This document shows, piece after piece, positions 5,168-51,928 of a DNA stretch of 64,000 nt; position 1 is the stretch's first letter, and the number at the start of each line of letters is the position of its first letter. Below the pieces are notes generated by a model. The model did not search any database. It saw only the letters and a list, made by a program, of their open reading frames with translations, and was not told where the DNA came from. Origin of the DNA: Bacteroidales bacterium UBA3843 (lineage in GTDB: Bacteria > Bacteroidota > Bacteroidia > Bacteroidales > Paludibacteraceae); NCBI GenBank assembly GCA_002392745.1, contig DGHR01000003.1:65154-129153 (forward strand), in the 5' to 3' direction. Position numbers and translations under genes: made by a program.

Positions 5168-5326
5168 TTTGTAGTATATACATAGTATATACTATATTAA
5201 ACAAAGTGCCAAAGTGCCAATTTTCGCGCAAAATTCTGCTCTGACAGTGTTCCAATGCTATAGGAATAACCCCCTTATCACCCCGAAATAACGCCGAAAT
5301 CACCCGGAAATCACCCCCTTCTACAT
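5168..5326 (-). repeat. composite repeat IR-L, the inverted partner of 51762-51928
   Basis: Hand alignment to the reverse complement of 51762-51928 gives perfect blocks of 14, 37, 15 and 28 nt (tttgtagtatatac; aaagtgccaaagtgccaattttcgcgcaaaattctgc; cccccttatcacccc; ccgaaatcacccggaaatcacccccttc). Confidence 0.85.
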
Positions 5327-5572
5327 GAACTGGGTGTCGAAAATTGTTCTATACAGTGTCAGCAGAGGAACGTGATAATGTGTAGCTGAGAAGCCGACAC
5401 ATCGAAGTGCCGATATGCCAAGAGTGGGAGGACCGATATGGCGACACAATGATACAGTGATATATCGAGAGAATGAAAGGTCAAAAGGCATGAAGACAGG
5501 AAGAGCGTACGGCCGGAAAATCCGGAAAGAATTTCAGCCAATATACCAGTTAATTATATTTGTGCAAATAAA

Positions 5573-6061
5573 TCAGTCATATCTAAATATCAGAGTGCAG
5601 GCAACGCCATTTTGTTCGCAGCATAGTTCGGTAGGATAATGCAATGCGGCCTTTTCAGAGGGATAATTCTTCAACTGATTAAGAGAAGGAACCGGTTGAT
5701 ATAATAAAACAGAGGTATCTCCTATTGCCGGATTAATGCCTGTGATGAGAATGGCGTGCCCCTCATCTTCTTTATCCAAACGCTGTCCACCACTTATTTC
5801 CCACAAGACAGGCAGGTCTTTGGTTGTGATAACTGTGTCGGTAATGAAAGAATGTGTGTACTGCGGCAGCAAATTAGCCGTGTTGATTTCTACACAGGAA
5901 TAATACAGTCCGTTTTGCGGGATTTTGGTGAGTTGAATGCTTAAAAGCCATGCGATACTTGGATCGGCAGGAACAGATTTTTCGCGATCGTCAATCGTGT
6001 TTTCACAGGAAGAGAACATAATTGCTGCAATGACAAGCAGCGGAAAAAGTTTGTTTTTCAT
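5573..6061 (-). CDS. hypothetical lipoprotein
   Basis: 162 aa. The N-terminus MKNKLFPLLVIAAIMFSSC is a signal peptide with a lipobox cysteine. No recognisable family. Confidence 0.6.
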   Translation of the reverse strand: MKNKLFPLLVIAAIMFSSCENTIDDREKSVPADPSIAWLLSIQLTKIPQNGLYYSCVEINTANLLPQYTHSFITDTVITTKDLPVLWEISGGQRLDKEDEGHAILITGINPAIGDTSVLLYQPVPSLNQLKNYPSEKAALHYPTELCCEQNGVACTLIFRYD

Positions 6062-6072
6062 AATTCAAGGCG

Positions 6073-6432
6073 TTAAATAATCCGCTGTAAAGTAGCTCCC
6101 GATGAATTTATAGTCATTTTATAGGAAGAGTTCCATTTGAAATAATAATTACTCCAAGAGACGGAGCGGATTTTGTTTCCCTTGCTATCATAAAAAACAG
6201 TTTCTACATAAACAGGTATATTTACAGATGTGTCAGACAACTCCACCGCACCACTATTATTTCGTGCGCCAGCTGTCGCCACCGGTAAATTGTCGCAATA
6301 TACGCGTACCGTATAATCGGTACTATTTACGACATACAAGATAGGAAAACTACGCTCGAACGTGTTGTTACAAGAGCAGAAAATGCCCATCATTAGGGCT
6401 AACAAAGCAAATAAACGAATTTTGTTTTTCAT
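6073..6432 (-). CDS. hypothetical lipoprotein (start moved to an internal ATG)
   Basis: The track ORF 6073-6537 has an implausible Arg/Phe-rich extension. The internal ATG at 6432 gives MKNKIRLFALLALMMGIFCSC, a signal peptide with lipobox, and 119 aa. Confidence 0.55.
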   Translation of the reverse strand: MKNKIRLFALLALMMGIFCSCNNTFERSFPILYVVNSTDYTVRVYCDNLPVATAGARNNSGAVELSDTSVNIPVYVETVFYDSKGNKIRSVSWSNYYFKWNSSYKMTINSSGATLQRII

Positions 6433-6587
6433 ACGTGCAAACAATTTTTGAATTTTTTGTTTGCAAAAGTAGTGCTTTGGAGCGGAGAAAACAAAAGTTC
6501 GACGGAATAATCGAAGAAATCGAAGAAATCGAATCAAGCCTCAGGTGAACTCTTCCGAGAAATACAAAGCGTCCACCCATAGAACAT

Positions 6588-7184
6588 CTATTGTAGCAGG
6601 TTTTCTAATTCTTTGCGCGCAGTGGCTACTTTAGAGGCTGCACGGCTTGGAACCGCCTCGTTGAACTGGCTGGAGGAAGGAACTTGTTTGCCGGTTGTTT
6701 GGGCTACCCACATTCTAAGATTGCGTTTATCCTTCAGGTCCGCTTTGCCCATTTTCTCAAGAGCCGTCAGATATTGCGCCACGAGCGCCAGATTGATATG
6801 CCCCGGTTTCTCGGGATGCTCCGGCAGCGAATGCAACAGTTGTTTGATCTGCAGCTCCTGTTGGTCGGAAAGCGCGGCAAGAGGCGAGTAGGGCACAGAC
6901 GGCTGTGCAGTTTGTTTCTTCTGCAAGATATAATCCACCTTCTTTTCAAAATCCTCCTCTTCGTCGCTGATGACAAAAGGCGAAAGACAGATTCTGCAGA
7001 CAAATGCGGTCGCCCACACCGCCGCAACGGCATACAAGATGTATGTCAGAACTTGTTTTGCCGGCGTGTCGATAGCCGCCACCACCATCAGAATCAGCGT
7101 CAATACAGACGTGATTTCGAAGACAGGGCGGATAGTGCGGTCGATTTTGTACAATATTTTGGCAGTGCGCGGGGACATAATCAA
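6588..7184 (-). CDS. hypothetical membrane protein (two TM segments, soluble C-terminal half)
   Basis: 198 aa with TM segments ITSVLTLILMVVAAI and VLTYILYAVAAVWATAFVCRICL. Its start overlaps the stop of the upstream gene (7181-7184), which suggests operon membership. Confidence 0.6.
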   Translation of the reverse strand: MIMSPRTAKILYKIDRTIRPVFEITSVLTLILMVVAAIDTPAKQVLTYILYAVAAVWATAFVCRICLSPFVISDEEEDFEKKVDYILQKKQTAQPSVPYSPLAALSDQQELQIKQLLHSLPEHPEKPGHINLALVAQYLTALEKMGKADLKDKRNLRMWVAQTTGKQVPSSSQFNEAVPSRAASKVATARKELENLLQ

Positions 7185-8473
7185 TAAATCTCGACGATTT
7201 CGCGTTTGACGCGACGGGTGATTTGGCTCTTGGTCAAAGGTATAACTCCCTCCGTTTGTAGGCCTGTGACGCGTTGTGTGGCCTTGATTCTAATGGGAAT
7301 CTCCTGTTTCTTGCTGCCCAAAATATGGGCGTTTGCGAGCATGTTTTTCTCCAGTGTGTACACATGTCCGTTCACCCGCTGGTAAACCGTGTTGTAATCT
7401 ACGTTCGCCCGCATTTTGCGCAGCCGGAACTTTTGGATTTGGCTGTCGCTCATGTTGATGAGATTCAACATCTGAAGCTGGTCTGCATTCAGTTTATAGC
7501 CAAAAGGTATGGTGATTTTGACCTCGGCATGCTCGGAGAAACGGCGCACCTCGTACGTGCGCGAATCCACTATATAATGGCGCGTGAAAGTCAGTTTGAA
7601 GAAGCCGAGGTATTTGATGATTTTCTGTGTGTGGGTGAGCACTGTCTCTCCTTCCGACTCATTGCTGACGGTCCAATGCCTGGTGTCACTCATAGCCTGC
7701 TCAAAGTCATATCGCATGTTTCCCATCGCGAAAAGCGCCTGGTGTACGACCACGCCGCTATCCACGGCATTTGCCGCCCGCCGCATCGCTTTGCCGGCTC
7801 CGGTGTTTTTCTTGTCCAACCGTTCAATCGCATTTCCTGCGAGAATAGAGTCCGCCTGTGCGCGTTTTTCGGCCGAGAAGAACCGTTTGCAGAAACGTCC
7901 CTGGAACTGTAAAGAGTCGCGTCCTTCGCGTGCCGTTTCCGGCATCACCACAATATTGGCAATCATCTGTTCCATGCCCCATGTCTCGCCCTCGGACTGC
8001 ATCCGTACATCGCTAACGACCTGATACTGAGCGGGATTGTCGGGAAACTCTTCTTCGAGTTTGACATACACTGCATGCAGTAGCGCCGCCATCTGTTTTC
8101 GTTTGTTGCGCTGCTTGCTCGCTTTTGCCGCGACGACCGTTTCCTCCAAAGCAATAGGCTGTTCCTTCAGGACAAGCGAAGTACGCTGTATGGCCATGGC
8201 GTTCAGTTCGGAGAGGGTAAGCGAGAGTTTCTCATAGCCAATGAAACTGACGATAACCGCACTGGATTCCGGCAGATTTGTCTCGAAAGAGAAACGTCCG
8301 TCGGTGTTGGTAGCCGTACCCGCCTCCGGTTGCAGTTCCGGATAGACGGTTGCATAAGAAACAGGCGAGCCGTTCTGGTCCACGACGCGTCCGTCATAGC
8401 GATTTGCGAAAGCCGTCAGACTGCACAGAACGCCCATGCATAAAAACAGCCGTATTTTATGCTGACGTATCAT
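7181..8473 (-). CDS. carboxypeptidase-regulatory-like (CarboxypepD_reg) domain protein, secreted
   Basis: 430 aa with a signal peptide. The N-terminal segment GRVVDQNGSPVSYATVY...TNTDGRFSFE is typical of the CarboxypepD_reg fold. A 4-nt overlap (8470-8473) links it to the upstream gene. Confidence 0.7.
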   Translation of the reverse strand: MIRQHKIRLFLCMGVLCSLTAFANRYDGRVVDQNGSPVSYATVYPELQPEAGTATNTDGRFSFETNLPESSAVIVSFIGYEKLSLTLSELNAMAIQRTSLVLKEQPIALEETVVAAKASKQRNKRKQMAALLHAVYVKLEEEFPDNPAQYQVVSDVRMQSEGETWGMEQMIANIVVMPETAREGRDSLQFQGRFCKRFFSAEKRAQADSILAGNAIERLDKKNTGAGKAMRRAANAVDSGVVVHQALFAMGNMRYDFEQAMSDTRHWTVSNESEGETVLTHTQKIIKYLGFFKLTFTRHYIVDSRTYEVRRFSEHAEVKITIPFGYKLNADQLQMLNLINMSDSQIQKFRLRKMRANVDYNTVYQRVNGHVYTLEKNMLANAHILGSKKQEIPIRIKATQRVTGLQTEGVIPLTKSQITRRVKREIVEIY

Positions 8474-10140
8474 TTTTTCTTTTTATAAGTGTTTAGATTG
8501 CCGTGTACTTCCTTGGTCTGTTTATGTACAAAAAGTCCGGGCAACATTGTTTTGATAACTCCATCGATACAAGGTCCAAACAAATACAGCGGGTATGGCG
8601 CCCACGCATCGTTTTTCCATTCCACGGAATAACTTCTAGGATGAATGTCCACCGCGGTAGGGTTGCTTTTCGGAATCAGCGTGTTTGCCAGCGATGTAAA
8701 GACATCCGCATATTTTGTGATGATTCTATAAGGCACCTGGTCCTCCTTGTGCACCTTGACATTCAGTCCTTTGTATTGCATACAGAACTCGCCTTTGGCT
8801 TTTTGTCTGTCTCCGCTATAGTTGGCGTCTATCTTGTTTATATGACAGTCGCATGTGATAGCCACCAAGGGCCGAATAAAAGGATTCAAATCCTGCAGTT
8901 CGGCATCGGTTCCGCTGATGGAAATATCAAACCGCGCATCATGATCGATGTACATATTGAATTTCGCGTCCACGATACCGTTCTTGCCGAAAGGAGCATG
9001 CAGGCGGTTGTACCAAACGGCTCCTGTCTTGTTGGTGATATTATCCAACCGGGCGTGTATATCGTTCAGGCGCAGTTTGCCGCAGTTGACATCCGAGGTG
9101 GTAACCTCTATATCAATCTTATGAACTACCGCCGTAGCCTGTTTGATACAGAAATACTCCGGAATCCGGCGCAGTATATCCTGGGGAATAGGGAATGGCT
9201 CTTTCGGCGCATGGCGCGCATCCCTGTGAACATGCATACGCCGTACGTTTGCGTGAAGGGAATCGAGCGTGTAGTCCTTATCCAAAATCTTATGCAACGG
9301 GTTGAAAGCCGAAGTAGAGAGACTATTCAACTCCAGGTCCATCCAAGTGGTGGGTTCGTTATGCATGTCCGCCAGTTTGCGCGGAGAAACGGTATTCCTG
9401 TAGCGCGTGTATCCCAGATGAAAAGGTCCCTGGTTTTTGGTCCGGAAACCGTGAATCTCCAGCGAAGACAAGCTGTCGGGAATAACAACAGACGCTTCGC
9501 CAACAGAAACCTCGTACACGGAATCATTGTAAGTGAACAGGGAGTCGCCAAAATCATACCGGAAATCGCGTACCTGTGCAGTCAGACTATCTATGTTCAG
9601 TTCGAGCGATGTATTCAGGCTATACAGTTCGGCGTGTGCATTGTTCACGCGTATTTTTCTGAGGTCCGCCAGTTTGAGCCACTGTCCCGCGTCCTCGAGC
9701 GTGGTGTCTTTAGGCAGGGCCGGCAGAATAGCCTCCGGATGCTTTTCGTCCAAATAGCAAACAAACGACGGATTATCCGCTGTAAGGCTGCTGACATGCA
9801 AGTGCTTTTCGCGGAAGAGTTTTCTATAACTGATATGTCCGACCGTGAGGGTAGGTACGTTTATTGCCAGCCCCGGCATACGCTGCCCGGATTGCAACGT
9901 GTCGTTCCGATTGATACTGTTGGTGGCAAAATATATGTCCTCCACGATAGCCGTACCGCTAAGGAAGAAGATGTGTATATCACCGATAGACGCCTCTACA
10001 TCCGGAATATCCTCAAAGGCATCTTTCACCTCTCGGTGTACGAGCCGCGACACCCAAATATCGGTAGTCACGACAGCAGCCGCGAACAGCCCAATAACAA
10101 CGCCGAGCGTCCATAATGTAATTTTAACCGGCTTTTTCAT
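8470..10140 (-). CDS. hypothetical N-terminally membrane-anchored envelope protein (AsmA/DUF748-like N-terminus, tentative)
   Basis: 556 aa with a single N-terminal TM (ITLWTLGVVIGLFAAAVVTT). It is preferred over the 537-aa plus-strand ORF 8503-10116, which is the Arg-rich codon-aligned shadow frame. Confidence 0.7.
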   Translation of the reverse strand: MKKPVKITLWTLGVVIGLFAAAVVTTDIWVSRLVHREVKDAFEDIPDVEASIGDIHIFFLSGTAIVEDIYFATNSINRNDTLQSGQRMPGLAINVPTLTVGHISYRKLFREKHLHVSSLTADNPSFVCYLDEKHPEAILPALPKDTTLEDAGQWLKLADLRKIRVNNAHAELYSLNTSLELNIDSLTAQVRDFRYDFGDSLFTYNDSVYEVSVGEASVVIPDSLSSLEIHGFRTKNQGPFHLGYTRYRNTVSPRKLADMHNEPTTWMDLELNSLSTSAFNPLHKILDKDYTLDSLHANVRRMHVHRDARHAPKEPFPIPQDILRRIPEYFCIKQATAVVHKIDIEVTTSDVNCGKLRLNDIHARLDNITNKTGAVWYNRLHAPFGKNGIVDAKFNMYIDHDARFDISISGTDAELQDLNPFIRPLVAITCDCHINKIDANYSGDRQKAKGEFCMQYKGLNVKVHKEDQVPYRIITKYADVFTSLANTLIPKSNPTAVDIHPRSYSVEWKNDAWAPYPLYLFGPCIDGVIKTMLPGLFVHKQTKEVHGNLNTYKKKK

Positions 10141-10709
10141 AACAAGAACAATTTAGAGTGCACAATTAATGAATGATTGTTGTATGTCCTGTCTCTCCGC
10201 CATAAGCGGTCCGGAAAGGAGTGTAAACGCGAATAGTATGTAGAAATATCTTTTCAACATTCCGCAGCCAATCACAGCCATTCGGCACAAATCGGGTACA
10301 AAAATACAGCTTTTTTTGCATATATGCAAATATTGGCCCAAAATAATTGTCTAAAATTCCGGAAGAATGCACACCGGACAGAAACAAACCGTATTCATCT
10401 TCACTGGATATATACACAGTATATATAGGTATGTGTGGGATACAATATTACTCCGAATCGTCCACTACGCGCCTCAAACGCGAGTCACAAAATGAGCGAA
10501 ACAGAGTGTTTTGGCAGAAAAAGTTCAATACGGTTTCGTGTGGGCACACGCTGTCACGTGCGCACAAACGTCATAAACGGGCATAAAGGGCATTTATTTG
10601 CGTTCTGAGCGCATGAATGAATTAGTCCGACAGTTAACCGCACAGACCCAAAAATCAAAAAATATGCAATAAAAATGCAGAAATATTTGCGTATGTAATT
10701 TTTTTTTAG

Positions 10710-10717
10710 TAATTTTG
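10710..10717 (+). promoter_or_regulatory. candidate -7 box (TAatTTTG)
   Basis: taattttg lies 39 nt upstream of the ATG at 10756, with an A/T-rich tract upstream. Confidence 0.35.
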
Positions 10718-10755
10718 CGCCGCAAAATATGGTCAAACCAATCTACATTACAGCA

Positions 10756-11640
10756 ATGAAGCGCTTTTTATTTACTACAGTGCTTGTTCTGGCGGCCGTA
10801 GCAACCGTACAGGCAGATGCATACAGGGACGCCCTCAGTGAGTACTTGAAGAAAAAAAATATCGCGCAGGAACAGGAAAGTTATGTGGAGATGATAACTC
10901 CGCTTGCCAAGCAACTATTTCCCGACGACGAAAAAGCAACCTCCGCGCTGGCGGAGTATTTCTCGTCGCAACTGGTAGATGATATTATAGATCTGAACGA
11001 GCCTGTTTACCGCAAACACATGAGTATTGCGGATTTGCAGGAGTTAGGAAAATTATATTCCGACCCCCGCATGGCCGATATTGAAAAGCGTAGTGCGGAA
11101 ATAGCAAGCGCCATGCAGAAATCGGAAGAGTTTGCCGCATACATGCAGAATATCCAAACTGCTTTTATGGAAATCCTGTCCGGCAATCCGATGCCTGAGG
11201 ATATGCCTCTGCCCGCCGAAATCTCGCCGGCATACTACGAAGCGTTTATGCAGTATTACAAAAACTCCCGCATGGACGAGATGATGAATACCTCCATGCG
11301 CACTGTGTTCGAAGCGGCGAAAAGCATGCTGCAGAAAAACAATCTCCCCGATATGGACAAAAAAGTCCAAGATTTGACCGATTATTCAGTGCGCAACATT
11401 CCCAACGTAGTAGCCATGGTAATGCACAAAACCATCACCATGGATGACTTGCGCCTGTTGTCTGAAGTAGCCGCCAAGCCCTGCGCCCAACGCGCAGCTG
11501 CCGCCGCAGTAGAACAATCCGAAAATCCGCTCCAGTTGGGTTTGCAGGTAATCGGCAAAATGGCGGACTGGATGGATGTGCACTACCCCCAATATGCCTC
11601 TCCATTCCGCGAGATGGTGAAAATGATGGAAAATTTATAA
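10756..11640 (+). CDS. hypothetical secreted all-alpha protein
   Basis: Starting at the internal ATG gives MKRFLFTTVLVLAAVATVQA, a signal peptide. 294 aa. No catalytic motif recognised. Confidence 0.65.
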   Translation: MKRFLFTTVLVLAAVATVQADAYRDALSEYLKKKNIAQEQESYVEMITPLAKQLFPDDEKATSALAEYFSSQLVDDIIDLNEPVYRKHMSIADLQELGKLYSDPRMADIEKRSAEIASAMQKSEEFAAYMQNIQTAFMEILSGNPMPEDMPLPAEISPAYYEAFMQYYKNSRMDEMMNTSMRTVFEAAKSMLQKNNLPDMDKKVQDLTDYSVRNIPNVVAMVMHKTITMDDLRLLSEVAAKPCAQRAAAAAVEQSENPLQLGLQVIGKMADWMDVHYPQYASPFREMVKMMENL

Positions 11641-11661
11641 AACACAAACAAATAACAAAAA

Positions 11662-14262: not shown

Positions 14263-14263
14263 T

Positions 14264-15927: not shown

Positions 15928-15960
15928 AGAAGTGCCTAAGGCACATAAAGAGTCAAGAAT

Positions 15961-18886: not shown

Positions 18887-18889
18887 TGT

Positions 18890-21745: not shown

Positions 21746-21758
21746 ATAAAAGAACGAT

Positions 21759-23345: not shown

Positions 23346-23422
23346 AGGCTAAAAAATAATATATATTTTCCAAAAAAGGAAAAAATCGTGCGTGTGTACT
23401 TGCATATGTGCGATTTATTTTG

Positions 23423-23430
23423 TACCTTTG
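23423..23430 (+). promoter_or_regulatory. candidate -7 box (TAccTTTG) of the V-ATPase operon
   Basis: tacctttg is preceded about 20 nt upstream by cttgcatat. It lies 137 nt before the first V-ATPase ATG. Confidence 0.45.
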
Positions 23431-23505: not shown

Positions 23506-23542
23506 CGATAAAACCTCGATAAAACCTCGATAAAACCTCGAT
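23506..23542 (+). repeat. 11-nt tandem repeat (CGATAAAACCT x3.4) in the V-ATPase 5' leader
   Basis: Three perfect copies at 23506-16, 23517-27 and 23528-38, plus a partial cgat. Confidence 0.9.
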
Positions 23543-23566
23543 CACGAATTTAAATACACAAATACA

Positions 23567-45500: not shown

Positions 45501-46617
45501 CAACCAGGCGGAAGTCAGATTGCCGAAGCACGACAATATATACTATTACTATAACCGATCCGGCAATAAACTCTGGGATTCCTATGAGTCGGGCCTCAGC
45601 GCGAAACGTGCTGAAAATGCAAGTTCTGCCGATAAGGTGGGCAAACTGGCCTTCAGTCCGGGTAAAGATGCCACATCGCAGGCATACAACCTGACCAATG
45701 AAGCAGCCTCCACCTCCTTCGTATTCGGTAACCCCACCATGGGATATATCGATATCTGGGGCTTTATCGCCGATAATGAACTGAACGGAGAGTTCGGGTA
45801 TATCAACGCCGCAGGCGCTTATACGACGATATCCAGAGACGCAGCGCTGGCCACGACCAACGAACTGACCAACCTGGAACGCTACCTCCCGCCGATGCAC
45901 GCAATGGTGGTTTCCACCGCTTCTGCATTGACAGAGAAAGCGGTAGTAGTAAAGACCAGCCGCATTGTTACCTCGCCCGTTGTGCCGGCTCCGTCTCCTA
46001 CACCTGCGCACCTCAAATCGGCGCTCAGCAAGGGAATCATGACCGTCACGGCTACTAACCCCGTCTCGCCACGTTGTATCTCGCGTCTGCTTATCGGACA
46101 GGGATACCATGCCGAGGTAATAGAGGGAGAGGACGCGCTGTTGACCACTATCAATATCGACAATTATTCCAACACCTCTGCGCCTGCCACACCGTTTAAT
46201 ATCTATGCCGTCGAGGGCAATAATGGTCTGAGTATCAACCTCAGAAACGAGGTTCTCAATGTGCCGCTGTCGTTCTATATGAGCCCGCTGCCCTATGACC
46301 CTGTCACCAACCTCTGGTTCACCGGCGTCAACGCTATTGACGGCGAACTTGTCCTGTATGACGCCCTTACTGATTCCGAGCGTTCCATTCTCGATGGTAT
46401 ATGCCTCACCATAGAGACTCCGGAAGCGAACCATGAGACCCGCTATTATATCCGACGAAGAGGATTCAGACCCGGCGGACAGGATGATCCGATAGCCACC
46501 GGTATAGGTACTTCTTCGGACGAAGAGGCAAGAGCTCAGAAAATATTGAAAAACGGACATGTACTCATCCTCAGGAACGGACATACATTCACAGTTTTTG
46601 GACAAAAAATACAATGA
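36562..46617 (+). CDS. giant (3,351-aa) secreted/cell-surface protein of unknown function with a T9SS-like C-terminal tail
   Basis: Uninterrupted 10,056-nt ORF with an N-terminal hydrophobic segment (VRVLLLISVVFVTLGMYGAVY). It has a Listeria-Bacteroides-type repeat at aa 576-617 (nt 38287-38412) and a BACON-like segment (PDWCEISSIGEHSITVRCKGNGIRAPRSANLYL). It also carries GNDFIIDDMCIF at aa ~2219 and the C-terminal tail KILKNGHVLILRNGHTFTVFGQKIQ. Confidence 0.9.
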   Translation: MNIVCLKNLCKVRVLLLISVVFVTLGMYGAVYDFTPTDGGLVVNLKQGDRILLSTWVDVNGNGVEDDGEEYFVCHYPGHTGGYFNYTNWDGNKGNFLKLIPQDAAATEPSSPSIWTIDDPVPFLNSGQTYPLDGIAYTMWSTNPGGDSYTLLTSSGNAYKYQGDLTREANNANICNAIFVVPTNRSTVTTFDPNRRLTTLEGRTDQDAQGRFNGEKGYGFLGLPYREVYWLDIPRGNGPYSYINASLVGFNKTLSEITYSNGDGKAKPGQALYAFGNKDKHHNTPRTIFRLYVLNDPLTSTCADSYFFAYDEQDYKQYNKNFAVTPATYTTKKKTYTIDRLVCMERLGDTKYYVSDWMNVPTPDSTYYYVGYKNLYCHQGHSPEETFNSQFKQIDTLKIHYLGLKAPRGAYGQMIVDTTQTGKQNLGVEFQPGGYFLQTNTGRNIQLTPNADGTVWTCEEMWHITDAYAALTIKATMFTGSEYSATDPGADIDGWSVPMVGTSVPLSDGSGYVTGGMNGWARIHIDNDAPNGAIEFVPANPDRHIHYNNNGCEGDTIADQYPMYGENSVTIREARLVKGFDFIGWTTNADGTGTLYRPGDVFNLPAGTTTLYAKATYTGTIHVALSFKKDDGKRYFLTHPGTAAPRFSRARSIAEWTDAYQGMANAENVDNRYINTYKVLTHPSPCAECAFDEVVLDPRREMRYGAVDSLLFYENFAPDNEEYIGLYYTDPNVILANTTWAGLFKSTATGGRNGWPDYTVADVKNAKIYSTHYLHRNGGGDIERVARSNSDVPYVKYNTTDNQFDGEASEANATVFQISRVRVADEHYVVIPDTTTAWTDEIVFGIHQDENIEQPVWSKLIGKQLMAVMKLDDDTVYFHPNPNKIITEYQQMRLNPNYRLEESFEYIRDSRVEAAGSVDDEDKPHMNDRLEKNYFGRLITSGRNTPMDVIYEGEYIDIVDTIRITLRTLGPVKIKGYYGRWKEGAPGLHIRPDGSRYRDIIVRTKTVHYGAVQTKLEITPEYPVYNFNPLAGDSKRLTFTMAKVNSHQLLDTDGNVLGEEIISSVDATSLLHLTSSQCSFKSGGAYFNINAAATLDDHITLVTKADNSSGVNYDTLLINSTATVGEVSYPVTGRVPLMQSALADAELIWSAVAGGNRYFIMAGEDGLGNKSLIFRQFELKSNTLYKKEDGKTQLVKGSANAANSDTKYITPWRYTYVNQAAQQLHLQTEYDVNLDFIINGSSLPNVATTGTGTGPVTLTYEYVNTYVNDNANFEEQVKLKYGTDRWLRLIVTEGVPSLTLTTNEEEATVFSWAYLQQEYNLLNNGAYPNKDYLEFGYNSTGSNASVQTRYKGYRIYSMLLNNTLTYCGREDENDIADLISDGNDWKTAYAIDIIRDSRFASGLSGLTKTTNEGTLTTTVTPSGDNPMDVTYGGKYVNIVDTLDVQISLQTGAPNYRFKDAWKDFTSVDDAHLKIPLIRRTFHTAPYDSLICTVESDEYYYVFPPEVTTGVNDTHTFTLHTDHRFGTNTLNTENQVVSYTGESDDHTSDMHLNNPAYAEIRLQDEYGNTPDWCEISSIGEHSITVRCKGNGIRAPRSANLYLAYTMQVSTKWRYINFRLQVMQSSRFQYAGNQNLVHSKGASGDDLKDGVQQVHENRNILYYYNPSNTAQSTDQRVELPVRERNFYGWWRWYSLQPGEEDTDIPAARWQTPPSNTGKWNFSFRVIGDSVDDGAGGKKLVTQGRYTVFHYPSQDYNARKDPPSKAPMLYPPQNKAVETYAVDLSVYYDNLPLSMKNVNQVDTAKLDTMTNIIEPTLSLREIYELHPWTEMADTLDHYRYALDAPYAGQKYLEDHVVRAPMGNRLLLKTEQRYSYNNIKKGNHSESLLGYYMHDDNWSTFDATAKDTMIWCGGWDVTCGWYTYNTRTGTYDTCRYTVTEANDFLQVPKKGSITSPSGVDTVIYCLRARSVKSTNVGTEDEKNAAGDYWFNICRYKVLYHREAMFGPKLENAGSAIITNDDIEQHFEVLERLNFDYNKPGTDYTVYPHPLPWADASYGFAYPRTADLPDNRPHNKNGLTNLANMGEYNLINRIPSFGSYWYKMEQHGGAANGYMIFCDGMSSAGQVAALSLESHLCEGQKLYFSAFVGNPNNETGNKSCPNFLFSVQGKEDEVDAEWEDITSYLTGDLAKSDKWYQIYFPIEQDKEYAHFRVRVYNMAADDNGNDFIIDDMCIFATKPPLMVYQANTTCKNENESDSLTHIVLRVDYQGFTDEIYAVGSEFYTVQEITKTNDSTFLKLEDGYYNEAKKPAIPPATKDTIYGEIGLPNRHYQPEDVDSIFPNLQGLIAKFEETLEAHALDPAVDVFRKGYVFEHLDDSIRPVLYVVHSAKMSADNTYVVHMAGQYSELMSSKCALTRSLRVRNRMILTLNGEEQAEKVVEGMCSNTTYDVSLHVKGTLLLNNTAPIEVTGSCYNDWLLHGDTARVSSKSRYGYYYKDIEKVIKDILRADPSQGTGIEPNPNYLAHSLAEVDRAAMKRVQTNNGVTLSEDVHPYDILAHLVNNGFLKLYQANLTVLTPVSEEVKYTIFPIPGTGSEVMQDLNIDVCPTPVHISLQSSLGEGAPLIIGGLNRSEEDSQYPITVLADVTQANSDISIPIDSLMMFPGTEGPRVALKQITLLSTNDPEYREGVHTIALEPDKTWNLEGDNTGYYKNGNDTLHLVNSISTNYLMRGGYNYTFGIEMMTNTGAESWGGVGDCSVGTIPFTLSVVPDYLRWDPQTSDNRWNNPDNWIGITANNTPIHADAHFAPQSSSYVIIPPMTDGKPYPVLVDPAAIPSEDSIQQVGFQYNACHSIRFLPGAAMSQQQRLIYDSVIADLSMPQEKWALRTSPVEGLLSGDIFMANADLMHETSTWEVGEFDASGRSATYGNASFWLSVYSREVVQKGNGDNVKDSVYTAEADWSKVTNAMTLPLPAAQGWAIYSRTKSGNQAEVRLPKHDNIYYYYNRSGNKLWDSYESGLSAKRAENASSADKVGKLAFSPGKDATSQAYNLTNEAASTSFVFGNPTMGYIDIWGFIADNELNGEFGYINAAGAYTTISRDAALATTNELTNLERYLPPMHAMVVSTASALTEKAVVVKTSRIVTSPVVPAPSPTPAHLKSALSKGIMTVTATNPVSPRCISRLLIGQGYHAEVIEGEDALLTTINIDNYSNTSAPATPFNIYAVEGNNGLSINLRNEVLNVPLSFYMSPLPYDPVTNLWFTGVNAIDGELVLYDALTDSERSILDGICLTIETPEANHETRYYIRRRGFRPGGQDDPIATGIGTSSDEEARAQKILKNGHVLILRNGHTFTVFGQKIQ

Positions 46618-46623
46618 TTGCAT

Positions 46624-47079
46624 ATGCAAATACGGTATTATTTATATAAATTTCTGTTGATGGCATGGCTGCTGATGCCAATAGCCGGCGCCAATGCCAG
46701 CAATGCCAATGACCGCACATCGGCGTATGCATCGTGGGGCTACAAGCCCTTGTATAGTACGGCTACGGCGAAACCCCAAGGGCGTGTTTACCAACTGAGC
46801 GGCAGTGTCCCGACATATCATTTCCGCTCTACCTCTCCGTATTCCTATGTGCCCGGTCAAACCACAACCCAGAGCTCTGTTCCGAGCGTCCTTCCTTCCC
46901 GTCCGCGAAAAGTAGGGGAGGGGGGCTCCGAATGGAACTGGGGCGACCCGGGGGAAGAGGACCCGATAGGCGTTTTGCCGGACCCTCAACCGGTTGGCGA
47001 ACCGCTCGTCCTGCTCCTCATGGCGGCGCTCTATCTCCTTTGCGCACGCATGTATGGCAAGCGAAAACAGCGTCTTTGA
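46624..47079 (+). CDS. hypothetical 151-aa protein: signal peptide, Ser/Thr/Pro/Tyr-rich middle, PEP-CTERM-like C-terminal anchor
   Basis: The ATG lies 6 nt after the giant-gene stop. N-terminus MQIRYYLYKFLLMAWLLMPIAGANA. C-terminus PVGEP-LVLLLMAALYLLCARMY-GKRKQRL (motif, TM helix, basic cluster). A strong terminator follows. Confidence 0.65.
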   Translation: MQIRYYLYKFLLMAWLLMPIAGANASNANDRTSAYASWGYKPLYSTATAKPQGRVYQLSGSVPTYHFRSTSPYSYVPGQTTTQSSVPSVLPSRPRKVGEGGSEWNWGDPGEEDPIGVLPDPQPVGEPLVLLLMAALYLLCARMYGKRKQRL

Positions 47080-47088
47080 TTTCCCCAA

Positions 47089-47118
47089 GCGCGGTCATTT
47101 CCTGACCGCGCTTTTCTT
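47089..47118 (+). terminator. rho-independent terminator closing the giant-gene unit
   Basis: GCGCGGTCA-tttcc-TGACCGCGC hairpin followed by TTTTCTTT. Confidence 0.75.
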
Positions 47119-47240
47119 TGCAGGTCTTGCTCTTGCGGGTAGTACCGCGAGCCCTCTGGATGAGCGAAGCGTTCCGGATCTGCCGGATTTTCTGGAAAAA
47201 AAATTACCCTCACACTTGCACCACTCAAAAAAAAGTTGTA

Positions 47241-47248
47241 CCTTTGCA
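47241..47248 (+). promoter_or_regulatory. candidate -7 box (TAccTTTG) embedded in the palindrome CCTTTGC-aggc-GCAAAGG, preceded by A8
   Basis: tcaaaaaaaagttgtacctttgcaggcgcaaaggtt; 33 of 36 nt are identical to 51361-51396. Confidence 0.4.
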
Positions 47249-47254
47249 GGCGCA

Positions 47255-47494
47255 AAGGTTTTTAAGTCCCCCAAGACGCTGATACCCGGAACGTCCTCCC
47301 GACGTAACGGGAGGAGTGGCCTCCGCCGAGGAGGGAAGTAAAAAATGAAATAAAAAAGCGCAAAGCGTTGCGCAATAACATATAACATACTAAAAGCGTT
47401 TGCTTTATTGATGGAGTATATTCATTTCTCGACAACTTGAATTTTGGCATCCTGAAATATAGCGAAACGCTCACGCTTAGGCGTGGGCTTTTCT
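47255..47494 (+). ncRNA. candidate orphan transcript (small RNA or long structured leader), about 240 nt; speculative
   Basis: It has a consensus-like promoter upstream and no ORF longer than 9 codons on this strand. Hairpins lie at 47295-47314 (CCTCCCG/CGGGAGG), 47320-47334 (CCTCC/GGAGG) and 47358-47373 (GCGCAA/TTGCGC). A terminator-like hairpin GCTCACGC-ttag-GCGTGGGC plus TTTTCT lies at 47469-47494. Confidence 0.25.
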
Positions 47495-47612
47495 GCGTAT
47501 ATTGGAGCCAAAAGGAGTCGAGACCTGAATATACCGATATACAATGCAAAAGGCTCACGTTTTTGTATGTCTATAAGTGGCGCGAAAATGGCTAAAAAAT
47601 AGACTACAAAAT

Positions 47613-49184
47613 ATGGCAGAATTAAGCAAAGTAAAAAGCGATTTGATTGCAGAGATTGAGAAACGTGTGGAAGACCATGTATTGGAACCGTCCAATGCAG
47701 AATTGCTGACCAAACTCATTTCTCAGGCGGACAATGACAACGAGGCAATTTCGATTGCTGCGTTGGGCACGACCTATAAGCGTACCGGTTTGCATTTTGA
47801 CAAACGGTTAGAGCGGTTGACGCATGACATCCGGTATTTCCGAAAGAATGATAAACTTAGTTTCCACACAGATAATAGCAAACCTACGCACAAACTCATC
47901 ATCGGCGATAACTATGAGGCTTTGCAGAATTTGCTGGTGCAATATACCGGTGCGATAGGTGTCATATATATTGACCCTCCTTATGGAAAGGACAGTATGG
48001 GTGAGTTTGCGCAAACGAACTACCAGAATGCTATCACGCGTGACAACCTGCTGTCTATGCTCTACCCGCGTCTGCAACTGGCTAAGCAACTATTGTCGGA
48101 CAGTGGCGTTATTTTCTGCTCAATAGACGACAAAAACCAAGCCTATGTCAAGTGCCTTTTTGATGAAGTTTTTGGAGAAAGCAATTTTATTGCGAATATA
48201 TGTCGTGAAGCAATAAAAGGCGGTACAAAGACAAAAAATATTAAGCAGGTTCACGATTATATAATTGTTTTTGCTAAGAATATTGCAGCAAATGAGAACG
48301 GAATATTATCAGGAGAGGAGTTCAGTGAGAACTATTCATATGATTATTTAGACGAAAAAGGATTTTTTGCTAAAGGTAGAGAATTAAACAAGTGGGGAGC
48401 GAGCTCAAGGCGAGAAGATTCTCCATCTATGTGGTTCCCAATTAAAGGACCAGAAGGAGACGTGTATCCAATAAGAAATGATGGCTCAGAAGGAAGGTGG
48501 AGATGGGGACGAGAAAAACTATTAAAAGCTGTAGATGAAAATGAGGTTATATTTGAGAAGAGGGAAGATGGTACTTATGTGGCATATGAAAAAATTAGAG
48601 ATAATAAGATAAAGAACAAACAACTAATATCGTTTCTTAAGGACTGTTTCTTAAATGCTAAGGGTAGCGAAGATTTGAAAGAAGTATTCAATACTCTTAT
48701 GTCTCCCTTTGATTATGCTAAACCTGTAAATTTAATTTCGTATCTAATAGAGAGCTTTCCCGAAGAAGATGCAATAATACTAGATTTCTTTGCAGGATCT
48801 GGGACTACAGGTCATGCAGTTTTAGATTTAAATAAGGATGGCGGCAACCGCACGTTTATTCTGTGTCAGATGAACGAGAAAACGGACACGACACCCAACG
48901 GCATTGCATATGATGTGACCGCCAAACGGCTCAAACGAATCATGACAGGCGAGTGTTATGACGGCACAAAGGATTTTGAATGGATCAAGAAGAACAAGCC
49001 TTACGGCGGCAATCTCGATGTCTATGAGATAGACAAAGTGGCGGATTTTGAATATACCGAAGGCAAGTCGCCTTTTGATGTGATAGACGAAACGCTCTAT
49101 GGTCAACCGCGTTTTGCTACGCTGCAAGAGAAAATAGATTGGGTGTGCTCGCATTTCGGCAACGCCCGCAAACAACTCGATTGA
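47613..49184 (+). CDS. mod: type III restriction-modification system methyltransferase (Mod), beta-class N6A/N4C MTase
   Basis: DPPY motif (VIYIDPPYGK) comes before FxGxG (LDFFAGSGTTGHA), the beta-class motif order. The ATG at 47613 is preferred over the GTG at 47577. The res gene follows after 1 nt. Confidence 0.88.
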   Translation: MAELSKVKSDLIAEIEKRVEDHVLEPSNAELLTKLISQADNDNEAISIAALGTTYKRTGLHFDKRLERLTHDIRYFRKNDKLSFHTDNSKPTHKLIIGDNYEALQNLLVQYTGAIGVIYIDPPYGKDSMGEFAQTNYQNAITRDNLLSMLYPRLQLAKQLLSDSGVIFCSIDDKNQAYVKCLFDEVFGESNFIANICREAIKGGTKTKNIKQVHDYIIVFAKNIAANENGILSGEEFSENYSYDYLDEKGFFAKGRELNKWGASSRREDSPSMWFPIKGPEGDVYPIRNDGSEGRWRWGREKLLKAVDENEVIFEKREDGTYVAYEKIRDNKIKNKQLISFLKDCFLNAKGSEDLKEVFNTLMSPFDYAKPVNLISYLIESFPEEDAIILDFFAGSGTTGHAVLDLNKDGGNRTFILCQMNEKTDTTPNGIAYDVTAKRLKRIMTGECYDGTKDFEWIKKNKPYGGNLDVYEIDKVADFEYTEGKSPFDVIDETLYGQPRFATLQEKIDWVCSHFGNARKQLD

Positions 49185-49185
49185 T

Positions 49186-51207
49186 ATGCTGCAAGAAATA
49201 AAAGATTTGCAACGCCGTGCAGTTGGCGAGTTGCTATTCAAGTCGGCGAAGAAACAAGAACTGACATTCCGTGCGCCAACCGGTAGCGGAAAGACCCATA
49301 TGATGGCGGATTTCATGAACCGGGTACTGGCTCAAAATCCCGATGTGGTCTTTCTCGTTTCCACGCTTTCCAAAGGCGATTTGGCGGGACAGAACTACCG
49401 CTCGTTCTGCAAGAGGCGTGAAGAAGGGGTGTTTCCAAATATCCATCCGTATCTTATCTCCACGAACATCAGCGGCGAGGAATCGCTCTATATACCAACG
49501 GACTACAACGTCTATGTGTTACCCCGCGACTTATTCAAAAAGAACGGTCGTTTGATGGCAGGTCCTATGACCGCTTTTTTAGAGCAACTGACGCGTGGAG
49601 AGTTATTCGGCGGTCAGAACAAACGCATTTATCTCATAAAAGACGAGTGCCACCAAGCGACAAACAATCTGGACGAGATCTCGCCGAAATTCTTTAGCAA
49701 GACATTCAATTTCTCCGCCACGCCAAACCTCAGACGCGGACAGATGCCGGATGTGCAGATAACCGACGACGAAGCCGTACAAGCCAAACTAATCAAACGA
49801 GTGGAATTTGGCGATGAGACTGCAACCGTAGAAGATGCGATTTGCAAGTTTGAGGAAGTCAAGCAGCAATACTTGTCATTGGATGTCAATCCGTGTCTCA
49901 TTATTCAGATTTCCAACAAAGAGAAAGCGGAAGAAGAGTGGCTGCGGAACATCAAACCCGTTCTGGACAAGACCGAGCACCAGAGCCTTAAATGGATGCT
50001 GATTGTCGATAAAGACAAAGATTGCGACACGAATGACGACCTCAAAAAACTGAAAGTCGATAAATGGAAAGAGTACGCAAAACTGCCTGCCTCCACGATA
50101 GATGTGATTATCTTCAAAATGGTTATTTCGGAAGGTTGGGATATTCCGCGTGCATGTATGTTGTACCAAGTACGCGACACCAAAAGCAAGCAGCTGGACG
50201 AGCAGGTGATGGGGCGTGTGCGGCGTAATCCGCGATTATTGGATTTCGAGACGCTGAATGCAGCGCAGCAAGAGTTAGCTACTACTGCGTGGATTTGGGG
50301 CATACTGCCGCAAGAGCGAACCAAAACGACGCAAGTGAGCCTTTGGAATGACGAGCAGATTCAGCATAAGATGTTGCTCAAAACAACCCGTATCCTCTTA
50401 CCTACCGAACGCAAGGATTTTAATGTAGAGGCTTTCTTTGAGACCCGGAAGAGTGTCGTGGCTCCGGAAGACATCTTTTCGCTGTACCATAAGCTGCAAG
50501 GTGCAGAGACCGATTTGCAGCACTTGTGTTATGAATACGCGGGTGAAAGCGTAGATAAATGGAAAGAGTTTATGATGAATATAGCAGCCGTACGGCATCA
50601 ATATAACCGGTTTATCTGCAACTATGAAGAAAGTATGGTCGTAGCAGAGGAAGAGACCTCTTTCCCGGCACGGTCATACTATCTGGAGACAGGCAATAAG
50701 AACTCAGCCGTCAAGAGCTGGGTGTGGCGCAAAGCATCCAACGGCGCGTTTACGTTTGACAGCGACGCAGAGAGCGAATGGGCGGGCATATTGCAAGAAG
50801 TAGCCGAGAAATACAGTGTGCGTATCGAACCCGGAGAGTTCTTCAACGAGGAAACGCGCTATCTATGGGGAAAGAATTTCTTGCCGAACTCGGAAATACG
50901 TTATGAGTATTACGCAGATGGTGTACATTCGTCGTATCCTGATTTTGTGATGAAAGATCAAATGGGGCGTATCCATCTGTTTGAAGTCAAGAGTGTCAAC
51001 CGCTCTGCCGGCACAAATATAGATTCCGCCGAGTATGAGGAAAAAGTGCGCCAACTGAAAGAGTGCTATCGCGCTTGCTCCAAGAAATTAGGCGGATATA
51101 TTTTCTACCTGCCGTTACTCAAAGAGGATACATGGCAAATTACTCGTTTTGACAATGGAGAGGAAACAATGCTAACCGAAGATGCATTCAGGGAATCCTT
51201 CAAATAA
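49186..51207 (+). CDS. res: type III restriction enzyme Res subunit (SF2 helicase plus PD-(D/E)xK nuclease)
   Basis: 673 aa with motif I APTGSGKTH, motif II DECH, FSATP, SEGWDIPRA and QVMGRVRRN. The C-terminal YPDFVMKD...IHLFEVKS is nuclease-like. Confidence 0.88.
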   Translation: MLQEIKDLQRRAVGELLFKSAKKQELTFRAPTGSGKTHMMADFMNRVLAQNPDVVFLVSTLSKGDLAGQNYRSFCKRREEGVFPNIHPYLISTNISGEESLYIPTDYNVYVLPRDLFKKNGRLMAGPMTAFLEQLTRGELFGGQNKRIYLIKDECHQATNNLDEISPKFFSKTFNFSATPNLRRGQMPDVQITDDEAVQAKLIKRVEFGDETATVEDAICKFEEVKQQYLSLDVNPCLIIQISNKEKAEEEWLRNIKPVLDKTEHQSLKWMLIVDKDKDCDTNDDLKKLKVDKWKEYAKLPASTIDVIIFKMVISEGWDIPRACMLYQVRDTKSKQLDEQVMGRVRRNPRLLDFETLNAAQQELATTAWIWGILPQERTKTTQVSLWNDEQIQHKMLLKTTRILLPTERKDFNVEAFFETRKSVVAPEDIFSLYHKLQGAETDLQHLCYEYAGESVDKWKEFMMNIAAVRHQYNRFICNYEESMVVAEEETSFPARSYYLETGNKNSAVKSWVWRKASNGAFTFDSDAESEWAGILQEVAEKYSVRIEPGEFFNEETRYLWGKNFLPNSEIRYEYYADGVHSSYPDFVMKDQMGRIHLFEVKSVNRSAGTNIDSAEYEEKVRQLKECYRACSKKLGGYIFYLPLLKEDTWQITRFDNGEETMLTEDAFRESFK

Positions 51208-51270
51208 ATCTCCATACTCTCAACCTTGATTAAACCGATGGAGTAGGATTATTCCGTTGTGTAAACATTT

Positions 51271-51300
51271 AGGGTGGGGCATTGCCTCGCCCTCTTTTTT
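51271..51300 (+). terminator. rho-independent terminator after res
   Basis: AGGGTGGGG-cattg-CCTCGCCCT hairpin (G-U pairs allowed) followed by CTTTTTT. Confidence 0.65.
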
Positions 51301-51374
51301 GCAAAACAATGTACGCAAAATCATTAGTGTCCATTTAAAATCACATTTTATTTGCATATCTCAAAAAAAAGTCG

Positions 51375-51382
51375 TACCTTTG
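51375..51382 (+). promoter_or_regulatory. candidate -7 box (TAccTTTG) embedded in the palindrome CCTTTGC-atcc-GCAAAGG, preceded by A8
   Basis: tcaaaaaaaagtcgtacctttgcatccgcaaaggtt, lying 96 nt upstream of the ATG at 51478. Confidence 0.45.
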
Positions 51383-51477
51383 CATCCGCAAAGGTTGTTT
51401 GTGACGATGATGGAAATGCGACCAATACATCGGACTTTGTATAAAGAAGGGAATAGCAACTTTGACCATCAGACTAT

Positions 51478-51672
51478 ATGCAAAAGTCAACTAAAAACAA
51501 ACTGAACATCTGGATTGGGGCGTTGATAGCCTTTATCTACGTCCTTATTCCGGTGGATTTGTCGCCCGATGCGGTGCCTGTCCTTGGATGGATTGATGAC
51601 ATTATTGCTATTCTGCTGGCCGTCGCCAACGGACTGCTTTGGGCCTCCAAAATCAAGAAAAACAAGGAGTAG
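51478..51672 (+). CDS. YkvA/DUF1232-family small membrane protein
   Basis: 64 aa. ALIAFIYVLIPVDLSPDAVPVLGWIDDIIAILLAV matches the DUF1232 signature (P.DL.PD..P..G..DD). Confidence 0.7.
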   Translation: MQKSTKNKLNIWIGALIAFIYVLIPVDLSPDAVPVLGWIDDIIAILLAVANGLLWASKIKKNKE

Positions 51673-51724
51673 GGCAGTGCCCTATACACTATAAACCATA
51701 AACCATACACCATACACAATCTAT

Positions 51725-51746
51725 CTCGACCGCGTGTCGAGTTTTT
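51725..51746 (+). terminator. rho-independent terminator
   Basis: CTCGAC-cgcgt-GTCGAG hairpin followed by TTTTT. Confidence 0.55.
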
Positions 51747-51761
51747 ATCGACCTTTTCTTC

Positions 51762-51928
51762 ATATTGAAGGGGGTGATTTCCGGGTGATTTCGGGGTGAT
51801 TTGGGGGTGATAAGGGGGAGATTGCTATAGCGTTAGAATACTTTTAGTGCAGAATTTTGCGCGAAAATTGGCACTTTGGCACTTTGGCACTTTACTTAAT
51901 CTAGTATATACGTAGTATATACTACAAA
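51762..51928 (+). repeat. composite repeat IR-R, the inverted partner of 5168-5326
   Basis: It contains GGGGTGATTTC-type 11-mers (51770-51818), GGCACTTT x3 (51870-51893) and TAGTATATAC x2 (51902-51911, 51913-51922). It aligns to the reverse complement of IR-L. Confidence 0.85.

Follow-up and report, generated by a model that had tools for sequence, protein, structure and literature searches.

CsrB, RsmY and RsmZ for CsrA, and CrcZ for Hfq/Crc, are stand-alone sponge small RNAs (sRNAs), often several per genome, in which a repeated short motif serves as a multivalent platform. In the Bacteroidetes, RNA-based regulation is only beginning to be charted. FopS/GibS of Bacteroides thetaiotaomicron, a lineage without Hfq and ProQ, comprises many paralogous sRNA genes with canonical sigma-ABfr promoters, and although one relative carries a near-palindromic promoter motif (PM2), a conserved single-stranded stretch is common to them (PMC11697453, PMC7366714). 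FopS/GibS associates with the protein RbpB and was deposited in Rfam, according to its authors (PMC11697453, PMC7366714).

Here, we analyzed a window of 64,000 nt (the whole stretch of DNA studied) from an uncultured member of the Bacteroidales, which contains two copies, A1 and A2, of an element that invites comparison with these systems. Similar to FopS/GibS, the element belongs to a set of multicopy units, part of which have canonical sigma-ABfr promoters. However, it has no sequence or Rfam match to FopS/GibS, and in place of a single seed it conserves a tandem array of 11-nt units. In addition, RbpB is an RRM protein, whereas the candidate partner here is not and is encoded beside one copy. 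The element also differs from the CsrB, RsmZ and CrcZ sponges, whose motifs lie in hairpin loops at irregular spacing; here, AAUCACSC recurs with a strict 11-nt period, the motif and the protein are unrelated to theirs, and binding is a candidate property. With about even confidence, we read the element from its sequence as a small non-coding unit with a multivalent array, probably for a linked protein family, and not as an inversion device.

The initial annotation had reported an inverted repeat at positions 5168-5326 and 51762-51928, and this repeat is real. A repeat search of the window returned two ungapped inverted blocks, 5202-5329/51759-51886 (128 nt, 89%) and 5168-5220/51876-51928 (53 nt, 89%). 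In a gapped global alignment of A1 (5168-5329, plus strand, 162 nt) and A2 (51759-51928, minus strand, 170 nt), 146 of 171 columns are identical (85.4%; 90.7% in ungapped columns). The perfect blocks measure 14, 10, 38, 15 and 28 nt; those of 14, 15 and 28 nt had been listed correctly, the one given as 37 nt is 38 nt long, and the 10-nt block is additional. The single 8-nt copy-number difference was recovered as well and concerns the unit AAGTGCCA, present twice in A1 (5204-5219, plus strand, overlapping a GC hairpin at 5214-5239) and three times in A2 (51869-51892, minus strand). The likeness ends at both element borders, beyond which the flanking DNA is unrelated, and the rest of the window contains no comparable inverted pair, the runner-up being 67 nt at 70%.

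Both copies, designated type A, share the same anatomy. A1 starts with a TTTG box (5168-5171), followed by the perfect 10+3+10 palindrome TAGTATATAC-ATA-GTATATACTA (5172-5194, plus strand), a candidate 5' hairpin or alternative promoter; its A2 counterpart is TAGTATATAC-TAC-GTATATACTA (51902-51924, minus strand). The LexA-like SOS operators of Bacteroidetes, GGA-N5-TCC and CTAA-N5-TTAG (PMC8565304), are not matched by this palindrome (GTATATAC-N3-GTATATAC). Further along lies a C-rich array of five 11-nt units, which in A1 read AATAACCCCCT TATCACCCCGA AATAACGCCGA AATCACCCGGA AATCACCCCCT (5265-5320, plus strand) and in A2 occupy positions 51768-51823 (minus strand). A hairpin, CTCGAC-N5-GTCGAG (51725-51741), represents the 3' module that type A conserves. 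It has a T-run on the plus strand and thus terminates the gene of a 64-aa DUF1232 protein (51478-51672, plus strand) that converges on A2, and its counterpart in orthologs is often bidirectional.

The neighbors of the two copies were located where the initial annotation had placed them. RNase P RNA (4463-4836) and tRNA-Gly(CCC) (4870-4941), both on the minus strand, are divergent neighbors of A1. A2 is divergent from the gene of a basic protein of 163 aa that belongs to no known family or fold (52019-52510, plus strand), downstream of which lies lon, encoding Lon protease (52738-55113, plus strand). The palindrome-bearing end points towards tRNA-Gly/rnpB in A1 and towards the 163-aa gene and lon in A2. 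DUF1232, element, 163-aa gene and lon also follow one another in this order in at least four species. The A2-type arrangement is orthologous in loci L053, L054, L056, L065, L087 and further loci; the 163-aa gene precedes lon also in L056, L065, L087 and others, and a DUF1232 gene neighbors the element in L087, L099, L100 and L104. A1, which has no adjoining 163-aa gene, lies inside approximately 2.2 kb absent from related species, a stretch that it fills together with three small ORFs of no family (162, 154 and 198 aa; 5573-7184, minus strand). In at least seven related species, tRNA-Gly directly abuts a 430-aa gene. Judged by this conserved gene order, A2 is the ancestral copy and A1 a paralogous one.

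These junctions bear on the proposal, made in the initial annotation, that RecA could recombine A1 with A2 and so invert the 46.4-kb segment between them. The two inverted copies span about 160 nt each at 85% identity, and their 38-nt perfect block slightly exceeds the minimum for RecA-dependent exchange in E. coli; a divergence of 15% would be under strong counter-selection by mismatch repair. When orientation was compared in relatives, the assembled arrangement turned out to be ancestral at both junctions, on the tRNA-Gly/430-aa gene side as well as on the DUF1232/163-aa gene/lon side. In addition, the GC skew of the block and its nearly all-plus genes agree with its replichore; the skew turns at C11, 175-185 kb, outside the block, and the putative terminus lies 60-110 kb away. 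Gene orientation, GC skew and ancestral junctions thus argue against a fixed inversion of the 46-kb block. Inversion would also turn gyrA, the V-ATPase operon and other genes head-on to replication, no recombinase is encoded among the scanned adjacent genes, and the pair is not unique in the genome. We consider this ordinary and unsupported reading highly improbable, although the block may invert rarely within a population. The inverted placement of A1 and A2, 46 kb apart, would be incidental, and dispersed inverted copies of this kind are not to be taken for inversion switches. As a side observation, Logan contigs break at the repeats and are hence uninformative on the orientation of the block, as are two metagenome scans, which returned nothing.

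The element is part of a larger set, which removes the idea of A1 and A2 as a specific pair. The genome holds 12 copies, three full-length type A (A1, A2 and A3) and nine of a second type, B, and the C-rich array is the sole part common to both types. This array consists of three to five tandem 11-nt AATCACCC units with the consensus WAATCACSCnn. In a search across this genus of uncultured rumen and gut Bacteroidales, 118 of 267 genomes contained a two-unit array pattern, with a reversed control near zero and genome-specific linkers; the named carriers are RUG, RGIG and UBA MAGs. The Rfam 15 scan of the window at gathering thresholds returned RNase P and tRNA only, and a scan of all 12 loci at E<=1 left the elements themselves without a match.

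Several features give the type B copies the look of small RNA genes. Their promoter is a canonical sigma-ABfr sequence, TTTG-N18-22-TAnnTTTG, at a fixed distance of 79 nt from the array. Such a promoter lies on the C-rich side of six of the nine type B arrays of this genome and on the G-rich side of none; for arrays in other genomes, the counts are 10 versus 4. The 5' segments fold better in sense than in antisense in 15 of 16 cases (G-U pairs, 39 versus 10), intrinsic terminators follow in five of the nine copies, the units contain no ORF, and the downstream genes are nearly all convergent. Going by promoters, strand-asymmetric hairpins and terminators, type B copies look like stand-alone small RNA genes with the C-rich strand transcribed.

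For type A, the promoter is limited to an imperfect nnnnTTTG (-7-like) box and the strand test is neutral (9/16; G-U pairs, 37 versus 32). A1 and A3 have no recognizable terminator and the tail of A2 is not U-rich, whereas type A orthologs have a conserved 3' hairpin, in several with a U-tail. Both the mid hairpin and the terminator stem preserve their pairing through sequence changes, the stem by compensatory changes at three of five pairs, and the array is predicted by folding to be unpaired. The initial annotation had also offered a shared upstream control module for the two flanking transcription units. For the right copy this comes close, A2 being the conserved divergent neighbor of the 163-aa gene; yet the element resembles a self-contained unit and not a control region common to tRNA-Gly/rnpB and lon.

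The 163-aa protein is the founder of a genus-restricted multicopy family. A phased ATCAC array lies within 300 nt upstream of 27 of 37 family members, which share 28-100% identity, versus 6 of 1,677 background genes, a statistic inflated by kinship among the loci. All 27 arrays have one orientation, pointing away from the family gene. This genome encodes six paralogs, each with an 11-nt array upstream (6/6); the unit flavor differs per paralog, and dispersed copies of each flavor are present in the genome. All five array-rich genomes encode the family. The predicted structure of the 163-aa protein consists of four N-terminal strands plus helices and has no match in the PDB. Searches of Pfam and NCBIfam gave no match and no recognizable RNA- or DNA-binding domain, so it is the linkage that points to this protein as the partner.

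A repeat array paired with the gene of a similar-sized protein is also found in the type III toxin-antitoxin system ToxIN, which combines a tandem-repeat RNA, a terminator and a repeat-binding protein of about 170 aa. In ToxIN, promoter, 36-nt repeat units, terminator and toxin follow each other in this order and all in the same direction. Here, the units are 11 nt long, and all 27 arrays point away from the gene. Given the opposite direction and the absence of a PADLOC model match, a type III toxin-antitoxin system was rejected. In PADLOC and PHROGs searches, 17 family members had no match.

The main rival reading is a ParR/parC-like array of DNA iterons or operators, in which the 163-aa protein would bind the 11-bp repeats cooperatively on one helix face and autoregulate its own gene (and lon), with the dispersed arrays as further chromosomal sites. 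In parC of plasmid R1, two sets of five 11-bp iterons flank the par promoter, and ParR binds them cooperatively and autoregulates (PMC2241845). The omega protein (ParB of pSM19035) binds 7-10 WATCACW heptads at promoter regions, including that of its own gene (PMC9499535). The layout here is alike in that tandem 11-bp direct repeats, with a period of one helical turn, adjoin the gene of a small protein; three to five of them lie upstream in fixed orientation, and each paralog has its own unit flavor with dispersed copies. The omega core ATCAC recurs in tandem direct repeats, and the neutral strand test of type A fits an operator as well. However, the likeness to omega may be a coincidence: its period is 7 versus 11 in the element, the 163-aa protein has a different predicted fold, and the host is a Firmicute plasmid versus a Bacteroidales chromosome here. 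Unlike parC, the arrays are chromosomal (a 413-kb contig with lon and the DUF1232 gene as neighbors), about a dozen are dispersed, and no ParM/ParA-type partner is present. Neither a ribbon-helix-helix domain nor another DNA-binding domain was detected in the 163-aa protein by Pfam, NCBIfam or the predicted structure. Many arrays also lie inside promoter-to-terminator units without a gene to regulate, and a canonical promoter about 79 nt upstream, as type B arrays have in terminated units devoid of ORFs, would be needless for an operator. Two loci show a reversed array orientation with respect to the gene, and in both a canonical promoter is reversed along with the array. The hairpin that separates gene and array retains its pairing though its sequence changes entirely, which is RNA-like. 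Given this evidence, the iteron reading seems unlikely to us, although it is a serious one.

Mosaic intergenic repeats such as BOX of Streptococcus pneumoniae and BIME/REP of enterobacteria are 100-200 nt long, occur in both orientations and vary in the number of internal sub-units. The units described here are likewise modular, mosaic and dispersed, with varying sub-unit copy number. They could be selfish or neutral repeats of this kind, or of the cyanobacterial STRR kind, that spread and homogenize by recombination or slippage, with the link to the 163-aa gene due to hitch-hiking. The genome contains 1,896 short tandem arrays with dominant periods of 7, 9 and 11, so a repeat-generating process may have left part of the arrays as by-products. 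It also has many 7-nt AATCACC arrays. The modules also recombine, the element palindrome being combined with different arrays at about 12 loci beside unrelated genes; the 8-mer copy number is variable, and linkers are homogenized within genomes. However, unlike BOX and BIME/REP, the units carry their own promoter and terminator and are tied to a protein gene family. Arrays are kept in one orientation upstream of members diverged to 28% identity, the spacing to the promoter is constant, and conservation extends to hairpins and terminators. Near the copies, neither a transposase nor a RAYT-like gene was seen, and neither terminal inverted repeats nor target duplications are evident. On balance, a selfish origin appears quite improbable.

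Under the favored reading of a small non-coding unit, A1 and A2 would be paralogous copies of a module spread through the genus, in which a promoter-like 5' end is followed by one or two hairpins, an unpaired 11-nt array and usually a terminator hairpin. Type A would be transcribed from the C-rich strand like type B, into an RNA about 180-200 nt long. The array would serve as a multivalent platform that most likely binds the co-inherited 163-aa family, and the dispersed copies, A1 and A3 together with all nine of type B, would provide this partner with additional sponge or scaffold RNAs, as CsrB, RsmZ and CrcZ do for theirs. A broader proposal, which we hold with less than even confidence, is that the family of about 130-165 aa, with its unmatched predicted fold, forms an undescribed recognition system with the 11-nt arrays. 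Each paralog would read its own flavor, the dozens of dispersed arrays, many of them on small RNAs, would constitute paralog-specific sponge or regulon sets, and the lon-linked pair would be the founding one. This founding module would possibly tie proteolysis or stress control to the recognition system.

The locus thus adds, in an uncultured rumen and gut lineage, a multicopy non-coding unit that is absent from Rfam and whose repeated motif is linked closely and directionally to a protein family specific to this lineage. Should the protein read the array, the two would form a new protein-repeat recognition pair, and paralogs with different units would be built-in natural specificity variants. 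The repeat units also explain assembly breaks at such loci in these organisms. The candidate unit flavors are AATCACCCnn, TATCGCGCACT, ACCTACTA... and CCTAGGTAT....

Within the window, a repeat search recovered two inverted ungapped blocks, 5202-5329/51759-51886 (128 nt, 89% identity) and 5168-5220/51876-51928 (53 nt, 89%). Gapped alignment of the two copies, A1 (5168-5329, plus strand, 162 nt) and A2 (51759-51928, minus strand, 170 nt), gave identity in 146 of 171 columns (85%), with perfect blocks of 14, 10, 38, 15, and 28 nt. The 8-nt unit AAGTGCCA occurs twice in A1 and three times in A2. The inverted ~160-nt repeat pair described in the initial annotation is borne out, and gene annotation confirms the neighbors it named: tRNA-Gly and RNase P RNA (rnpB) on the minus strand to the left, and an ORF of 163 amino acids (aa; 52019-52510) and lon on the plus strand to the right. 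The flanks of the two copies align to nothing in each other. Each copy is divergent from these neighbors and faces the 3' end of another gene in convergent orientation.

The two copies are not a private pair. Across the genome (2.28 Mb in 20 contigs, the window being C11:65154-129153), three full-length copies are present, namely, A1, A2, and A3 (C17:50339-50492), here called type A. Nine more loci (type B) share only ~60 nt, corresponding to a C-rich array. All 12 aligned copies follow one plan, in which a promoter-like 5' end is followed by hairpins and then by 11-nt units (WAATCACSCnn), four or five per copy. The 5' end of the nine type B copies is a textbook Bacteroidetes promoter (TTTG-N20-TAnnTTTG); in type A, a TTTG box, a perfect 10+3+10 palindrome, and an 8-mer microsatellite follow one another instead. 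A small-ORF reading of the elements was rejected, as no start codon was seen by eye in the type B unit and 8-nt indels separate A1 from A2. Assemblies of this lineage break at these repeats: a type B copy lies within 170 to 1,000 nt of the end of three contigs (C20:1-229, C18:1-229, and C7:1-1073), and public unitigs (Logan contigs that encode the exact flanking proteins) are interrupted within A1 and A2.

No Rfam family matches the elements, and BLAST of the whole element against 30 relatives returned no match. The genus-wide spread is visible only through a pattern of two array units, which matches 118 of 267 genus genomes, often many times each, with a reversed-pattern control near zero. 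The 4-nt linker of the array is typical of each genome. The named carriers are uncultured rumen and gut metagenome-assembled genomes (RUG, RGIG "Paludibacteraceae bacterium," and UBA). The element belongs to an undescribed, genus-wide family of noncoding units that bear such arrays and are linked to an uncharacterized protein family. In other species, the C-rich array is also found in sense orientation in a spacer whose flanks read as mraZ-rsmH (L068, L069, L070, and L075) and after apparent tRNA genes (L062 and L079), these gene names being read from sequence rather than assigned by a tool. Such contexts raise the possibility that the array may also lie within longer transcripts.

The protein family is that of the 163-aa gene. 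Five other species have a type A element immediately upstream of their ortholog of this gene and in divergent orientation to it, with lon beyond; at locus L087, a DUF1232 gene occupies the far side of the element, and more loci share this arrangement. The right-hand copy, A2, is ancestral and tied to the 163-aa gene. In most species, the start codon of the ortholog lies 10 to 17 nt from the conserved 5' box of the element, GGCAYGRTTTTTG. The 163-aa protein has no match in Pfam, NCBIfam, PDB sequences, PADLOC, or PHROGs, and its 313 homologs are all annotated as hypothetical. Its AlphaFold model is confident (pLDDT 84.6) and shows four N-terminal strands followed by helices; a Foldseek search of the model against the PDB gave nothing below an E value of 0.25.

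The family is multicopy, with six members in this genome and two to nine profile hits in each of five array-rich genomes, and was not found in 298 genomes from ~200 other genera of the order. All six members in this genome have an array of 11-nt period upstream, each with its own unit flavor, and these flavors also occur as dispersed copies. Genus-wide, 27 of 37 members (28 to 100% identity) carry a phased ATCAC array (three or more ATCAC sites spaced 11 nt apart, ≤300 nt upstream) against a background of 6 of 1,677 genes in this genome, a linkage that is descriptive only because kinship among loci inflates a formal P value. The C-rich strand runs away from the gene in 27 of 27 cases. In the genome of a related species (G104), two copies of the 163-aa gene with equal scores and identical upstream elements (C38:92054-92542 and 107813-108301; L103 and L124) lie 15.8 kb apart on one contig, which looks like a recent duplication of a gene-plus-element module. 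A 129-aa paralog in the present genome (C8:13700-14432) is preceded by three copies of the 8-mer GGCACTTT, which is also the microsatellite of A1 and A2, and by an array of three CTCATTACCTA units.

The initial annotation proposed that the 46.4-kb block between A1 and A2 could flip by RecA-mediated exchange. Inversion is not supported, given that the junctions at both ends are ancestral as assembled, that the pair is not private, and that the copies are only 85% identical. At least seven related species have tRNA-Gly next to the ortholog of the 430-aa CarboxypepD_reg gene (7181-8473), in the same orientation and 50 to 230 nt away. Here, ~2.2 kb of extra sequence (4942-7184) separates the two and contains A1 and three small minus-strand ORFs (162, 154, and 198 aa), none with a family; a weak PG1828-type lipoprotein signal is present in the first. 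At the other end of the block, the order DUF1232, element, 163-aa gene, lon is ancestral. The junctions expected of an inverted block (tRNA-Gly-DUF1232 and 430-aa gene-163-aa gene) are absent from this assembly. Scans of metagenome contigs with unique flank sequences matched nothing and speak neither for nor against inversion. Cumulative GC skew on contig C11 peaks at 175 to 185 kb, 46 to 56 kb right of the window, the point at which plus-strand gene bias gives way to minus-strand bias and probably the replication terminus. All of the block (C11:70-117 kb) belongs to a single replichore, with a GC skew and almost all-plus genes that agree with the surroundings. With 85% identity and a longest perfect block of 38 nt, exchange between A1 and A2 would be rare at best.

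Six of the nine type B arrays of this genome have a canonical promoter on the C-rich side, at a constant distance of 79 nt, and none has one on the other side. In other genomes, the corresponding counts are 10 versus 4, with fixed distances on the C-rich side only. At the two loci that carry the array in reverse orientation with respect to the 163-aa gene, a canonical promoter has turned with it. Sense folding of the 5' part is more favorable than antisense folding in 15 of 16 distinct copies (G-U pairs, 39 versus 10), a difference to which base composition may contribute. Folding predictions leave the array unpaired. Clean terminators are present at five of nine copies. A 5' leader or attenuator was rejected because the downstream genes are convergent. 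These features make a good case that type B is transcribed as RNA.

The RNA evidence for type A is weaker than that for type B. The middle hairpin keeps its pairing with changed sequence (CUGCCA/UGGCAG, CUGACA/UGUCAG, UCUAAC/GUUAGA, and UCCGCC/GGCGGA), the 3' hairpin shows compensatory changes at three of five pairs, and U-rich tails follow it in several orthologs. The strand-folding test is neutral, the -7-like box is imperfect, and no terminator was found for A1 and A3. In other species (L105, L107 to L112, L116, L118, L126, and L127), a canonical sigma-ABfr promoter lies 60 to 120 nt beyond the type A terminator and points back to the shared hairpin, suggesting a second short convergent transcript that would end at the same bidirectional terminator.

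The arrays could instead act as DNA iterons, for which there are real precedents: in parC of plasmid R1, 11-bp iterons in two sets of five lie at the promoter of ParR itself (PMC2241845), and omega binds WATCACW heptad repeats (PMC9499535). Weighing the type B and type A evidence with these precedents, we therefore rank transcribed RNA units first, at about an even chance of being right, and DNA iterons second, as a rather unlikely explanation. Mimicry of the anti-Shine-Dalgarno sequence (AAUCACCCCCUUU versus the 16S tail GAUCACCUCCUUU) was set aside: in many species the AATCACGCGC units lack the C-run, and the assembly of this genome contains no 16S 3' end.

The genome contains 1,896 short tandem arrays in 2.28 Mb (TRF), most commonly of period 7 (552), 9 (218), and 11 (212). 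Examples in the window are 1158-1222 and 30453-30493, and ~25 of the arrays are AATCACC heptamers. The type A palindrome, ATATATAC-N3-GTATATAT, is joined to other arrays at ~12 intergenic loci beside unrelated genes, including 10405-10427 in the window (C11:75562), C12:73290, C12:109137, C6:93263, and C1:165339, often with a different 11-nt array, TATCCTATGGG, or TTAGTGCGTCG-type arrays following it. These loci look like a sister family with a shared 5' module. The array count and the shared palindrome make the element family part of a wider, modular repeat landscape and keep alive the view of the units as selfish or neutral, which we consider improbable. A LexA/SOS box was rejected for the palindrome, as was an operator of a coherent regulon, the flanking genes (from their translations, YbeY-like, MiaB-like, MetK, RecQ, RecD-like, amylase, glycosyltransferases, and transporters) having no common theme. 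A possible counterpart is the PM2 promoter of Bacteroides thetaiotaomicron, described as near-palindromic, which offers a lead. Finally, CGATAAAACCT forms 11-nt tandem arrays in the V-ATPase leader (window 23506-23542, 3 copies) and at C7:83945-84014 (6.4 copies), and its words are the conserved A-run and the stem GATAAAACCTCGA of the type A 3' hairpin.
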